From: an uncultured Chromatiaceae bacterium
GTDB lineage: Bacteria; Pseudomonadota; Gammaproteobacteria; Steroidobacterales; GCA-2729495
Length of the DNA stretch: 29,418 nucleotides
NCBI GenBank assembly: GCA_964350425.1
Contig: CAYGKB010000001.1
Location: 1 to 29,418 of the forward strand
Direction: 5' to 3'
Position 1 is the stretch's first letter. Each line of letters opens with the position of its first letter. Shown here piece by piece: positions 23,942-28,198 of the stretch. The notes under the pieces are model-generated. The model was not told the DNA's origin, ran no database searches, and was given only the letters and a program-made list of their open reading frames with translations. Position numbers and translations under genes: made by a program.

Positions 23942-24888
23942 TTATTCTCAAACGCATTCTGGCCACCTGCGCATTGCTGTTGGTGGCCAGCTACCTCGCT
24001 CTCGTCGTTTACGCCTACTGGCCCACAGGCATTGAAACCATGCCGGCGAAGGAACTGGCCACCGCGGAAGACCGCTTTGCTGACGTCAACGGGCTGGAAT
24101 TGCGCTATCGCACCTATGGGGAACCGGCGGCAGACAAGCCGAATTTGCTGCTGCTGCATGGCATGGGAAACTCACTGCAGTCCTTTCGGCTGCTTGCGCC
24201 ATTGCTGCAGGATGACTTTTTTGTGGTGGCGCTGGATATGCCGGGCTTCGGACTATCATCCAAGCCATCAGACTATGACTATCGGGCGGGCAGCATGGCA
24301 GCAACCGTGGGTGAGTTTGCGCGGGCAATTGGTCTAGAGCGCTATGCCGTGGGCGGACATTCCATGGGCGGCGCGATTGCCCTGCTGACCGCCATTAACG
24401 AACCTGAAGTCAGCGGCCTGATACTGATGAACCCTGGCATCATTAATGACGGTGTGCCCGAATTCACGCGTTACATGCCGTTTCCGTTTCAGCGCATTTC
24501 TGCCAAGCAGTTTGGCGATCGCAATTTTCGCGAGCGCTTTCTGAAGATTTCCTACATCAACACAGCACTCATAACGGACGAGGTAATGGACGACCTGCAG
24601 CTGGCAGCTCGGACCGACGACTATCTGGCAGGCGCCACCAGCATGATGGGCCAGTATGAAGAGCCGGTGGGCGTAGCGCCGCTCGCTGATGTCACTGTCC
24701 CGACCTTAATCGCCTGGGGCGAACAGGATCTCAACAAGAATGAGACGGAGCTGCAGCAACTGCAGGAAGGGCTGACAAATACGCAGGTGAGCGTTGTCAA
24801 AGTGGCTGATTCCGGGCACTACGTGCATGAGGAAGGCGCCGCACCGGTGGCCCGGGCCATGATCGAAGCCGCACCGCTATGGCGCTGA
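23938..24888 (+). CDS. Alpha/beta hydrolase with N-terminal membrane anchor
   Basis: LLLHGMG, LDMPGFGLS, GHSMGG, WGEQD, GHYVHEE; ATGA overlap with the yaaA stop. Confidence 0.9.
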   Translation: MIILKRILATCALLLVASYLALVVYAYWPTGIETMPAKELATAEDRFADVNGLELRYRTYGEPAADKPNLLLLHGMGNSLQSFRLLAPLLQDDFFVVALDMPGFGLSSKPSDYDYRAGSMAATVGEFARAIGLERYAVGGHSMGGAIALLTAINEPEVSGLILMNPGIINDGVPEFTRYMPFPFQRISAKQFGDRNFRERFLKISYINTALITDEVMDDLQLAARTDDYLAGATSMMGQYEEPVGVAPLADVTVPTLIAWGEQDLNKNETELQQLQEGLTNTQVSVVKVADSGHYVHEEGAAPVARAMIEAAPLWR

Positions 24889-24890
24889 CC

Positions 24891-24958
24891 GGGTTCTTAC
24901 TCTGACCCCATTTATTGGGGTTTTTACTCTGACCCCATTTATTGGACCCCATTTATTG
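24891..24958. repeat. Short tandem hairpin repeats (GGGT-N10-ACCCCATTTATTG)
   Basis: gggttcttactctgaccccatttattgg at 24891 and gggtttttactctgaccccatttattgg at 24918 (period 27), plus a third partial gaccccatttattg at 24945. Confidence 0.85.
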
Positions 24959-24968
24959 CGGGCAAAGA

Positions 24969-24992
24969 AAAACCCCGCCGAAGCGGGGTTTT
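24969..24992 (-). terminator. Rho-independent terminator of the first VPLPA-CTERM gene (possibly bidirectional)
   Basis: Minus strand AAAACCCCGC-TTCG-GCGGGGTTTT followed by TCTTT; cUUCGg tetraloop. Confidence 0.9.
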
Positions 24993-25033
24993 CCGAATGC
25001 ATCTGCTAAGTAAAACTTAGCTGAATATCATTC

Positions 25034-25843
25034 TTAGGCTTTGATCTTGCGGCGGAAGCCGAGCAGACCAAGAGCCGAACCGAACAGCCAAACAGCGGCC
25101 GGAACCGGAACAACGGTTGTCGTCAGCGAGAACGAGTTCACCGTGTCAGTACCGTCCACGTCACCGGCTGCATCACGACCTTCAGTCAGCAGAGACAGCG
25201 TGCTGCCGTCCCAGGTAGCTTTCAGGCGTGCAGGGCCGTTGGGTCCGCAAGGCGGAGCCGTGCTGCCAGCATCGTTGATCGGATCGTTGGAAGCGCCGGG
25301 CAGGTAGCAGGCACCAGGAGTGACTGAACCATCAGAGATGTTCCAGGCAAACGGCATGCCGGCTGTAACACCCGGTGAACAGTTGGCCGGAGCGAACAGG
25401 GTGCGTGCGCAGTCAACGCTGCCGACGGTGCCAAATCCGCTAGCCAGGTCAATCGTGACGTCTTCCCAGATACGCAGCCACCAGCTGTTGCCACCTACGA
25501 CAACCTGGTCGCCAACCGTACCCGTGATCACGAGCGTACCGCCGATAACGTCACCGGTGCCATCGTCAGTGATGATAGTACCGCTGTAGGTTCCGGTGAA
25601 CGGAGACAGGGCCTTGGGAGCGCCGCCGTCGTCGTTCCAGGTAAAGGCACTCGGAGCACCCGCCAACAGCACGTCCGGCACTGCATCACCACCGTCAAAA
25701 ATTCCGGTCGTGTTGGGAGTGCCATCGGCGTTGTTGTTGGTAATGCTGGTGCTATCCCAGTTACCACCTGTGATGGTGATAACAGCAGCGTTTGCGCTAA
25801 ACGATACAAGCGCGAGAGCTGCCATTGTGATTACTTTCTTCAT
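25034..25843 (-). CDS. VPLPA-CTERM (PEP-CTERM-class) sorting-domain surface protein 1
   Basis: Signal peptide MKKVITMAALALVSFSANA; T/G/D-rich body; C-terminus VVPVPAAVWLFGSALGLLGFRRKIKA. Confidence 0.93.
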   Translation of the reverse strand: MKKVITMAALALVSFSANAAVITITGGNWDSTSITNNNADGTPNTTGIFDGGDAVPDVLLAGAPSAFTWNDDGGAPKALSPFTGTYSGTIITDDGTGDVIGGTLVITGTVGDQVVVGGNSWWLRIWEDVTIDLASGFGTVGSVDCARTLFAPANCSPGVTAGMPFAWNISDGSVTPGACYLPGASNDPINDAGSTAPPCGPNGPARLKATWDGSTLSLLTEGRDAAGDVDGTDTVNSFSLTTTVVPVPAAVWLFGSALGLLGFRRKIKA

Positions 25844-25880
25844 TACAACTAATCTCCAAATATTTATAGATTGTCTTATT

Positions 25881-26002
25881 AGAGATTTGCGGCCCGGCTG
25901 TCTCCCCTTGTAACACTCCTTTCAACTGCTTGGTACACAGCGGAAAGAGCGAGATCCGTAGCTTTGCGTCGCCGGCTCACGCCGGTTTTGCCTTTGTCCT
26001 CT
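25881..26002 (-). promoter_or_regulatory. c-di-GMP-I (GEMM) riboswitch
   Basis: Minus strand AGAGG-acaaa-GGCAAAACCGGC-GTGA-GCCGGC-GACGCAAAGCTACGGATCTC-(46 nt)-GAGACAGCCGGGCCGC-aaa-TCTCT. It shows the GGCAAA motif, GNRA-capped P1b, GACGCAAAGC junction, AGACAGCC 3' motif and a closing P1. Confidence 0.9.
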
Positions 26003-26240
26003 TTTCATCGACGAACCGAATGTAACCGGTTTGGGACATTGAATCAAAGCGTTTTTACATAAGCGAGAAAATAGCAAAAAAAATGTGAAAGCCAGCATTG
26101 GAGCCGTTTCCAGCTCCCCGGCGCAAGCCATTGTTTTATATGATTCATGGTCAAACCCGTGCTGCAGAGAGCGCAGCAAATGCCGCTGCCGTGAGCCACC
26201 GCCACAGGCAGAAATAAGGGGTTCGTGGCTGCACAGCAAT

Positions 26241-26274
26241 AAAAGCGGGCCGCCCGAAATCCGGGCGGCCCGCT
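26241..26274 (-). terminator. Rho-independent terminator of the second VPLPA-CTERM gene
   Basis: 13-bp perfect stem AGCGGGCCGCCCG/CGGGCGGCCCGCT with a 5-nt loop, followed on the minus strand by TTTATT. Confidence 0.85.
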
Positions 26275-26306
26275 GCGTTGCAATCGCTTATTTAATGTGT
26301 ATGGAG

Positions 26307-27065
26307 TTAACTCTGGCGCACCCGGCGACGCACCCCGAGCATAGCCAGTGCGGAACCGAACAGCCAAACCGCTGCCGGCACGGGCACTACCGTGGGCAGT
26401 TGTGACCCCAGCTCCAGATTGTATTCGGCCGTAGCAGCCAGTGCCACAAAACCATTCCATGAACTTATAGTATTGATGGTAAACGGGTTCATCAGGTTAT
26501 TGGTATCAACGGTGCCGGTAAAACCCGGACCGTCGAGAATATCGCCGTAAGCAAAAAAGTTATCGGCACCGGTCCAGTCGGTCAGGGCATACGGAGGGCC
26601 GAAGGTCTCCAGCGGACCGCCACGACCTACATAGTTGCCGCCATATTGATAACCCGGGCCGCAGGCTGCGCCGTTAGCGCCGTTGCAGCTTACGCTGCCG
26701 GTCAGCAAGCGCATACTGGATCCCACTGTTTTCCAGTGAAAGTCTTCCATTGTCACGGTGTCATATTCCGGAGTATTCGGGTAATCGGGGTTCAGATCCC
26801 AGTTGGATGTCAGACTGCCCACCTGTGCAAGATCGAGCCAGATCACGGCGCCAGTCGTGTCATCGAAGGTGATGACGCCGGCAACCGCCATTTCCGGTCC
26901 GCCGTTGGCGGTAGTGGACAGCGTATTGGCCCCGATCTGACCCGGATTCCAGGTCTGCATGCCATCCCAGGAGCCGGTCACGGTATAAGAAACAGGCGCA
27001 GCGTTAATTGCGGCTGCAAGTGCCAGGCCTCCCAGTAGTGCAGAGAATTGAATTAAACGGCGCAT
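26307..27065 (-). CDS. VPLPA-CTERM sorting-domain surface protein 2
   Basis: Signal peptide MRRLIQFSALLGGLALAAAINA; SD GGGGGA; C-terminus VVPVPAAVWLFGSALAMLGVRRRVRQS. Start moved to ATG 27065. Confidence 0.93.
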   Translation of the reverse strand: MRRLIQFSALLGGLALAAAINAAPVSYTVTGSWDGMQTWNPGQIGANTLSTTANGGPEMAVAGVITFDDTTGAVIWLDLAQVGSLTSNWDLNPDYPNTPEYDTVTMEDFHWKTVGSSMRLLTGSVSCNGANGAACGPGYQYGGNYVGRGGPLETFGPPYALTDWTGADNFFAYGDILDGPGFTGTVDTNNLMNPFTINTISSWNGFVALAATAEYNLELGSQLPTVVPVPAAVWLFGSALAMLGVRRRVRQS

Positions 27066-27172
27066 AAGGTTTCCCCCAATTGTTTGCCAGTTGTTGTGAT
27101 TGTGTTCGTAGTCGGGAGACACCCGCCGCCTGTGGTACGCAGGCAATATTCAGCAGGTGTTTGCGACAATCT

Positions 27173-27188
27173 GTAACCTACAGGTTAC
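27173..27188. promoter_or_regulatory. Candidate operator, inverted repeat GTAACCT-AC-AGGTTAC
   Basis: Perfect 7-bp arms in the divergent region between the VPLPA gene and the MarR-like gene. Confidence 0.5.
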
Positions 27189-27339
27189 GCCGCATGGCAA
27201 GAAGCACAGTTTCGATAACGCAATTGTTGCGGTTCCGGAACGATCTGTCGGTACCGGCTCGACAACATCAGTTAGGATTAAACGTTCGACACCGGTCCGC
27301 CGACGAAGGCACCAAACAATACTGGAGAGTTGTGCACTT

Positions 27340-27744
27340 ATGGAAAAGGCCGCCATCAAACAGGAGTTTGCGGAACTGACGGGTCAGGAAGTTCAGGAGC
27401 TGATGTTTGAAATATTCAACCTGCTGGCCGAACATTTTGACGGCGACACCACACTGAACAGCCTGCGCATTGGCAACTACATCGGCCTGAAGTCCATTTA
27501 TTACGGCGTCCCGACCAATAACAAGGACATCGCTGCAACTCTGAATATTTCACCGTCGACGGTCTCAAGACTGGTTACCAACCTGATGCAGCTGGGCTAT
27601 ATCGGCGAGGAATCGCACCCCAGTGACGGTCGGGTCAGACTGGTCAGCATTCTGCAGGATCACCCGGAGCAGCAGGCTTTTGAAAGCTCCGTCAGAGAGG
27701 CGCTCGGCCAGGGATTCCGGCTGAAGAAATCAGTTTTAAACTAA
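27340..27744 (+). CDS. MarR-like winged-helix transcriptional regulator
   Basis: NNKDIAATLNISPSTVSRLVTNLMQLGYI (HTH), HPSDGRVRLVSI (wing); SD GGAGAG before ATG 27340. Confidence 0.85.
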   Translation: MEKAAIKQEFAELTGQEVQELMFEIFNLLAEHFDGDTTLNSLRIGNYIGLKSIYYGVPTNNKDIAATLNISPSTVSRLVTNLMQLGYIGEESHPSDGRVRLVSILQDHPEQQAFESSVREALGQGFRLKKSVLN

Positions 27745-27823
27745 GCACCCCAGCGGCATGGTTCGACGGCGCGGCATCTTCTAGAATGCCGTTTTCTACC
27801 GCCGGCGAGATGCGAGCTTTTTC

Positions 27824-28198
27824 ATGGGTAAAACCGGAGTGACCGGCCTGCGCCGCGTCTGGAATGCGTTGTTTTTTTCGCTGGCCGGCCTGCGGGCTGC
27901 CTGGCGCCATGAATCGGCGTTCCGCCAGGAAACCACGCTGTGTGTGCTGCTCATTCCGGCCGCCTTCTGGCTGGGCAGCAATGCCATTGAATACAGCCTG
28001 CTGGTCGGCACGCTGCTGCTGGTACTAATTACCGAGCTGCTGAATTCGGCGGTGGAAGCCGTGGTTGACCGTATCGGCGATGCACCGCACACCCTGTCCG
28101 GCCAGGCCAAGGACATGGGCTCGGCGGCGGTGCTGATCTCGCTGCTGCTGGTGGTGTTTGTCTGGGGCAGTATTGCCTGGCAGAAGTTTTACTCCTGA
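27824..28198 (+). CDS. dgkA: Diacylglycerol kinase
   Basis: SLAGLRAAWRHESAFRQE, ELLNSAVEAVVDRIG, AKDMGSAAV. Confidence 0.95.
   Translation: MGKTGVTGLRRVWNALFFSLAGLRAAWRHESAFRQETTLCVLLIPAAFWLGSNAIEYSLLVGTLLLVLITELLNSAVEAVVDRIGDAPHTLSGQAKDMGSAAVLISLLLVVFVWGSIAWQKFYS

Follow-up and report, generated by a model that had tools for sequence, protein, structure and literature searches.

A c-di-GMP-I riboswitch predicted to act as a translational ON switch for a PEP-CTERM-class protein in an uncultured Chromatiaceae bacterium

Introduction

Does a leader RNA place an exported protein under the direct control of cyclic di-GMP (c-di-GMP), and if so, in which direction? The question is raised by a 29,418-nucleotide (nt) stretch of DNA from an uncultured Chromatiaceae bacterium (contig CAYGKB010000001.1, positions 1 to 29,418), referred to below as the window. 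On its minus strand, a c-di-GMP-I (GEMM-I) aptamer precedes the gene for a 269-amino-acid (aa) secreted protein of the PEP-CTERM class, whose ATG start codon lies at 25843..25841. The leader is probably a canonical GEMM-I riboswitch acting as a translational ON switch for this one protein, a model that draws on the identity of the aptamer, the absence of a terminator, two helices that exclude each other and calculated accessibilities of the Shine-Dalgarno (SD) sequence.

In the proposed mechanism, a sigma-70-type promoter would start the transcript ~10 nt ahead of helix P1. Without ligand, AAUCUCUAA, which follows the aptamer, would pair with UUGGAGAUU and hide the SD element GGAG. Binding of c-di-GMP among G25992, A25965 and C25889 would stabilise P1 (AGAGG/UCUCU), which would take five of the nine anti-SD bases, opening the hairpin and allowing ribosomes to start at the ATG at 25843. 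The protein would be exported by means of its signal peptide and presumably handled by the exosortase of the same genome.

Aptamer identity and choice of ligand

A scan of the whole window (29.4 kb) against Rfam, with the gathering score of each family as cut-off, gives a single match reaching that score. This is RF01051 (c-di-GMP-I, GEMM-I) at 26002..25885 of the minus strand, with 49.5 bits against a cut-off of 35, an E-value of 5.2e-7 and the complete model (positions 1-87) covered. A search of the genome returns the same match, the only such element in this assembly, which is 67% complete. The score is modest because the insertion in P3, 8 nt long in the model, runs to 39 nt here. The first-pass annotation had described a complete GEMM aptamer ending 37 nt before the ATG, and both points hold (the linker runs from 25880 to 25844 on the minus strand). 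No further cyclic-dinucleotide aptamer is found within 24500-28000 at E<=5, a range that includes the leader of an upstream paralog (27146-26307).

The bases expected to contact the ligand were assigned by alignment to the RF01051 and RF03167 consensus and are numbered as in Vc2, the reference c-di-GMP-I riboswitch. In Vc2, G20, A47 and C92 contact c-di-GMP; G20 touches one guanine of the ligand and C92 is the Watson-Crick partner of the second (PMC4744006, PMC5888326). Equivalents of all three are present, in line with the earlier reading of the locus (Table 1). The C44-G83 interhelical pair, which is universally conserved, is likewise present as C25968 (the C of GAC) and G25898 (the G of AG). 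The base right after C92 is an A and departs from the conserved C of the RF01051 consensus.

Two neighbouring aptamer classes were considered and rejected. The c-di-GMP-I-GGC variant (RF03167) has nearly the same fold, and in a permissive scan of 24500-28000 its model reaches 51.7 bits, below its own cut-off of 59. That it nevertheless outscores RF01051 is due to its also modelling P1, and the G after GACGC that defines the variant is replaced here by A25965. The covariance-model comparison proposed in the first-pass annotation thus leaves RF01051 as the family that passes. Aptamers of the 3',3'-cyclic GMP-AMP (cGAMP) type, or GEMM-Ib, reportedly carry an A at the position of Vc2 G20, as described by Kellenberger and by Nelson in 2015. 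The window has G25992 at this position, not A. By these alignments the aptamer is almost certainly canonical c-di-GMP-I, neither the GGC variant nor the cGAMP type.

The expression platform

P1 consists of AGAGG (26002..25998) paired with UCUCU (25885..25881), five pairs of which one is G-U. The alternative is a hairpin of nine pairs, also with one G-U, between AAUCUCUAA and UUGGAGAUU, which covers the GGAG and appears in the minimum-energy fold given by RNAfold. Since UCUCU is used by both helices, they are mutually exclusive; the pairing, its coordinates and the exclusion had all been noticed before, and all of them stand. The complementarity exceeds what base composition would give: the duplex of the 18 nt after C92 with the SD window has an energy of -9.6 kcal/mol, compared with a mean of -3.7 in 1000 shuffles, 7 of which reach -9.6.

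In c-di-GMP-I riboswitches, ligand binding stabilises P1. The two states of the window leader are close in the models, with an ensemble energy gap of only 1.3 kcal/mol on enforcing P1 (RNAfold), a near balance that ligand binding could tip. The calculated cost of opening the 8-nt SD window drops by 4.9 kcal/mol, from 6.6 when the 5' strand of P1 is blocked to 1.7 when P1 is enforced. On the minus strand, the terminator scan finds no candidate site from the aptamer to the ATG, and terminator-based control was rejected on this ground. The riboswitch would thus act on a single open reading frame (ORF), and not through an intrinsic terminator.

The P1 helix may be longer than its five pairs. A bipartite P1, in which the inner helix is joined by an outer one of GUC (26012-26010) with the GAC of a conserved AAGAC motif, is the best duplex between the 5' and 3' flanks in the window and in L135, L114, L124, L118, L122 and L133, with shuffle p values of 0.02-0.19. 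These values make the GUC/GAC extension a lead that may be worth following, not an established helix.

Related leaders

The leader and its gene are kept in three of ten other species of the genus, with leader DNA identities of 95%, 85% and 84%. The proteins behind these three leaders are 43-70% identical to the window protein, the 70% ortholog being that of G010. Farther afield, a pattern scan in which each prokaryotic species was represented by one genome yielded 24 matching stretches, 11 of which have the 5' half of a GEMM-I aptamer upstream. All 11 of these GEMM-I leaders come from metagenome-assembled genomes labelled Gammaproteobacteria, Chromatiales or Chromatiaceae, and all 11 precede proteins with a signal peptide. 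A VPVPAA..RRR-type tail closes each of the eight products that were read to the stop codon; for the remaining three the reading stops short of a tail.

In nine related leaders, RNAalifold recovers P2 and P3, with changes on both sides of 7 of 21 pairs (for example GC/CG and CG/AU in P2). P1 changes from AGAGG/UCUCU in the window to AGAAGG/CCUUCU in relatives. The number of extra bases between C92 and P1 also varies, being zero in L122, L133 and L127, two in L114 and L124, and three in the window. Within the P3 insertion, the inserted hairpin keeps its UACCAAG loop, while the stem sequence has changed in L061; in L066 (the same leader as L118) the insertion reaches ~230 nt.

The exclusive use of one strand by P1 and by the SD hairpin recurs in this set. 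Duplexes between the stretch after C92 and the SD window reach -9.6 to -14.7 kcal/mol in 8 of the 11 leaders (1000 shuffles, p<=0.012). The pairs that lengthen the anti-SD helix vary with the genus: AAU:AUU in the window, AAAGA:UCUUU in L114, L118 and L124, and a duplicated CUAAUUUCUAA in L130. When P1 forms, the cost of opening the SD falls in nine of nine leaders, by 0.6-6.6 kcal/mol. The initiation region GGAG(G)AUAGUUGUAAUGAAGAAA (25835-25860 in the window) is nearly invariant across several genera, ahead of mature proteins that have diverged strongly.

Sequence from RNA is available for one relative. A salt-marsh metatranscriptome contains a 698-nt contig, ~84% identical to the window over 25314-25998, in which the aptamer is joined to the coding region and which shares a 7-nt insertion with L130. 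Among the assembled contigs of this metatranscriptome, none extends upstream of 25999. The pattern fits the predicted start and read-through into the gene, although contigs prove neither a start nor a transcript level. DNA of the window (25000-26100) is found in biofloc, unlabelled-metagenome and activated-sludge runs.

Weighing the ON-switch model

Several observations count against the proposed switch or limit what the comparative counts can say. With P1 formed, a weaker local hairpin of AAUCU (25872-25868) with AGAUU (25855-25851) covers part of the SD in RNAfold. P1 itself has five pairs only, one of them G-U, and lies three bases out of its usual register because A25888-25886 sit between C92 and P1; the in-register P1 pairs of the RF03167 model are flagged as non-canonical in the window. 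So short and displaced a P1 could couple more weakly to the ligand. The aptamer is also among the lowest-scoring in its genus (range 40-87 bits, most above 60), mainly through the P3 insertion. Among the relatives, anti-SD complementarity in L117, L122 and L133 (3 of 11 leaders) is no better than in shuffles. The register of the platform helix shifts from leader to leader, so that RNAalifold, run on a MAFFT alignment of the leaders, predicts no consensus pairing for the expression platform; duplex and accessibility calculations on each sequence were used instead. As the leaders share ancestry, the counts of nine in nine and 8 in 11 are not independent tests, and the sign test on SD opening is biased, since blocking any competing strand tends to lower the opening cost.

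The claim that c-di-GMP frees the ribosome-binding site consequently needs rewording: the opening cost falls when P1 is formed, but the AAUCU/AGAUU hairpin leaves the SD loosened, not fully freed. The translational ON switch survives as the best model, given the missing terminator, the overlap of the anti-SD with P1, the calculated opening costs and the same design in relatives; its direction is predicted from sequence and thermodynamic models.

An output other than translation initiation is the first alternative. Here c-di-GMP would be bound, and the effect would fall on mRNA stability or processing in the linker, or on Rho-dependent termination inside the gene through altered translation. 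The linker, taken as 45 nt, is rich in A and U and largely unpaired in the folds, like many RNase E substrates, and the thermodynamic gap between the two states is small. Against this alternative stands the anti-SD/SD complementarity, well above chance and kept by different pairs across genera; in addition, the linker contains few C's, which makes a rut site unlikely, and the RNA contig of the relative spans leader and gene. On balance this alternative is unlikely.

Regulation could also run the opposite way, the folded aptamer and the local AAUCU/AGAUU hairpin occluding the ribosome-binding site better than the ligand-free RNA does. RNAfold does pair part of the SD with AAUCU when P1 is enforced, and OFF switches are known among GEMM-I riboswitches, Cd1 for instance (PMC4744006). 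Such an OFF switch is nonetheless improbable: the SD is cheaper to open with P1 formed in every one of the nine leaders, the AAUCU hairpin is weak and its uninterrupted AAUCU is missing in L135 and in L114-type leaders, and no terminator is present.

Recognition of something other than c-di-GMP, for instance 3',3'-cGAMP or another dinucleotide, would require a pocket remodelled by the P1 shift, the A after C92 and the P3 insertion. The A in place of the conserved C, the three A's that separate C92 from P1 and the slightly higher score of RF03167 (51.7 versus 49.5 bits) point in this direction. However, all three contact positions are of the c-di-GMP type, RF03167 stays under its cut-off of 59, and relatives without the extra A's share its core, so that a change of ligand is very unlikely. 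That the leader is a decaying relic which no longer regulates is scarcely credible, for its score is among the lowest of the genus but its core positions are intact, P2 and P3 show compensatory changes, and the leader is 84-95% identical in three congeners whose proteins are only 43-70% identical.

The regulated protein and the exosortase

The protein had been labelled a VPLPA-CTERM protein. The two models for the PEP-CTERM class disagree: TIGR02595 (NCBIfam) passes narrowly, with 16.7 bits against a cut-off of 16, and PF07589 (Pfam) falls short, with 13.4 bits against 20.7. The more specific assignment fails: TIGR03370, the VPLPA-CTERM family itself, reaches 14.6 bits against 25.35 (NCBIfam). 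The nearest clusters in the ESM Atlas are hypothetical proteins carrying PF07589. An accurate label is thus PEP-CTERM class with a VPVPA motif, the VPVPAA of the tail resembling the VPLPA-CTERM motif without family membership.

An exosortase is encoded in the same genome (PF09721, 248.9 bits, G000:C12:1489-2250), and the window also encodes Wzz and polysaccharide-export genes. The exosortase sits in an open frame of 541 aa, compared with 254 positions in the Pfam domain, which suggests a fused extra domain. The upstream paralog (26307-27146, minus strand) has the same VPVPAAVWLFGSAL..RRR tail; it scores 18.7 bits with TIGR03370, also under 25.35.

Transcription unit

The unit is monocistronic and comprises, on the minus strand, a sigma-70-like promoter, the aptamer, a 37-nt AU-rich linker, GGAG, the ATG at 25843, the 269-aa ORF and a terminator (Table 1). 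A strong terminator at 26274-26244 of the minus strand closes off the gene upstream of the unit (27146..26307). The predicted promoter matches the consensus at 8 of 12 positions, under the 9 of 12 demanded by the promoter scan, and is for that reason unlisted there. Counterparts of this -35/-10 pair, such as TTGACC..TATAGT, are present in L063, L068, L074 and L067. The transcript is predicted to start near G26012. A sigma-54 promoter, as expected for some PEP-CTERM systems, was rejected, as the sequence reads without a GG-N10-GC element upstream.

Several genera have TTATGTAAA, TTATGTTAA or a close variant in their PEP-CTERM riboswitch leaders (L063, L068, L074, L067, L064), each time on the upstream side of the -35 hexamer at a distance of 6-8 nt. 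This motif may be a regulator-binding or UP-like site, perhaps giving the gene a transcription factor input besides the riboswitch. A 28-codon frame that runs through the aptamer from an ATG at 26008 to a stop at 25922 (the tail of ORF 25922..26239) was set aside as a by-product of the conserved RNA.

Table 1. Features of the leader, the gene and their flanks, in window coordinates
Feature	Position	Strand	Basis
Conserved motif TTATGTAAA, 6 nt ahead of the -35 hexamer	26054..26062	-	single occurrence in the window
Predicted sigma-70-type promoter: TTGATT 26047-26042, 17 nt, TACATT 26024-26019	26019..26047	-	sequence reading; kept in L060-L062
c-di-GMP-I (GEMM-I) aptamer	25885..26002	-	RF01051, 49.5 bits; P2/P3 by RNAalifold in nine related leaders
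P1 5' strand AGAGG	25998..26002	-	pairs with UCUCU 25885-25881; AGAAGG/CCUUCU in relatives
G20 equivalent	25992	-	unpaired G preceding the GC pair of P2 in RF01051/RF03167 alignments
P2 stem-loop with GUGA (GNRA) tetraloop 25980-25977	25966..25991	-	alignment; compensatory pairs GC/CG, CG/AU
A47 equivalent	25965	-	base right after GACGC; RF01051 consensus A, RF03167 consensus G, window A
P3 with structured 39-nt insertion at ~25946-25908	25891..25963	-	cmscan insertion
C92 equivalent	25889	-	C two bases 3' of P3; alignments
Three A's between C92 and P1 3' strand, shifting the P1 register	25886..25888	-	in-register pairs of the model flagged non-canonical
Anti-SD AAUCUCUAA	25879..25887	-	9 bp (one G-U) with 25859-25851; hairpin alone -6.4 kcal/mol; in minimum-energy fold
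P1 3' strand UCUCU, common to the anti-SD	25881..25885	-	sequence and folds
GAC of conserved AAGAC motif, possible outer P1 extension with GUC 26012-26010	25873..25875	-	duplex calculation
UUGGAGAUU holding the SD GGAG 25857-25854	25851..25859	-	sequence reading
Regulated gene, 269-aa secreted protein, tail VPVPAAVWLFGSALGLLGFRRKIKA (PEP-CTERM class)	25034..25843	-	ORF list; TIGR02595; homologous leader in G010
Intrinsic terminator closing the unit, GGAAAACCCCGCUUCGGCGGGGUUUU	24969..24994	-	resembles terminator ends of several Rfam models

Comparison with known systems

The window leader shares with Vc2, from the tfoY leader of Vibrio cholerae (RF01051), the three-helix fold, the GNRA loop on P2, the G20, A47 and C92 contacts and the C44-G83 pair (PMC4744006). 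It differs in the structured 39-nt P3 insertion, the three A's between C92 and P1, the A instead of C after C92 and the regulated gene. Vc1, the GEMM-I riboswitch of the V. cholerae gbpA leader, reportedly raises the expression of a secreted colonisation protein, an adhesin, in response to c-di-GMP (PMC4744006). Positive control of a secreted surface protein from a GEMM-I aptamer would be common to both, being only predicted in the window. The window leader differs from Vc1 in its short, readable platform, where the 3' strand of P1 serves as anti-SD, and in its cargo, a putative exosortase substrate instead of a chitin-binding protein. Cd1, in the flgB leader of Clostridioides difficile, belongs to the same aptamer class.

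Cd1 acts through a transcription terminator. The leader in the window has none, and its architecture predicts a translational ON switch, whereas Cd1 is reported to be a c-di-GMP-I OFF switch (PMC4744006).

The closest precedent for the pairing of aptamer and cargo is Methylophaga nitratireducenticrescens GP59, where the c-di-GMP riboswitches Ribo4-Ribo7 lie directly upstream of VPLPA-CTERM/PEP-CTERM genes in an exopolysaccharide region (PMC12530212, Table 4). That study gives transcript levels, not a mechanism (PMC12530212). The organism is different, and the likeness considered here is one of arrangement (a riboswitch paired with a PEP-CTERM gene, exopolysaccharide genes nearby).

The riboswitch class, the ON-switch design and the PEP-CTERM pairing are therefore already known, the last being published for Methylophaga (PMC12530212), and what the locus contributes is an annotation and a model that can be tested, not a new principle. 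Its own peculiarities are minor: the A-bulge after C92, the P3 insertion, the TTATGTAAA motif and the possible GUC/GAC extension of P1. If the ON model is true, the leader is a compact example of the sessility signal c-di-GMP acting directly on the mRNA of an exosortase substrate, in a host found in biofloc and activated sludge, two settings in which a role in aggregation is attributed to PEP-CTERM proteins. A platform this short, with the 3' strand of P1 as anti-SD, would lend itself well to use as a test case or as a part for sensors.

Other c-di-GMP-I riboswitches in the clade

RF01051 matches are found in 40 of 41 related genomes. Within the genus there are 37 matches above the cut-off, in 10 of 11 genomes, and only four of them, the homologous ones, precede PEP-CTERM genes; a general link between the riboswitch and PEP-CTERM proteins across the genus was accordingly rejected. 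The remaining matches (loci L090-L111) precede genes for an M23 peptidase (several orthologs), a PilM-like protein, an oxidase-like protein and others, and their linkers are mostly longer than that of the window. In 22 other relatives, 19 open frames were called behind the best matches, and not one has a PEP-CTERM tail. The PEP-CTERM leaders thus appear to be a sub-lineage of their own, with the P3 insertion and the short platform as its marks.

A wider version of this idea is more speculative. It is possible, although doubtful, that a separate GEMM-I sub-lineage serves exosortase cargo in uncultured floc- and sediment-dwelling Gammaproteobacteria, recognisable by two to three A's after C92, a P3 insertion that ranges from 39 to ~230 nt, a P1 that may have two parts and whose 3' strand serves as anti-SD, the near-invariant initiation region and TTATGTAAA. 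If so, the surface protein could answer to a different c-di-GMP threshold, or to a second transcriptional input, compared with other riboswitch-controlled genes.

Two further observations concern the clade at large. The genus riboswitches before M23 peptidase, PilM-like and oxidase-like genes suggest a wider c-di-GMP RNA regulon that takes in the cell wall and pili. In two relatives, tandem c-di-GMP-I aptamers lie ~170 nt apart on the same strand (G005:C123:3454-3791 and G004:C108:4477-4815).

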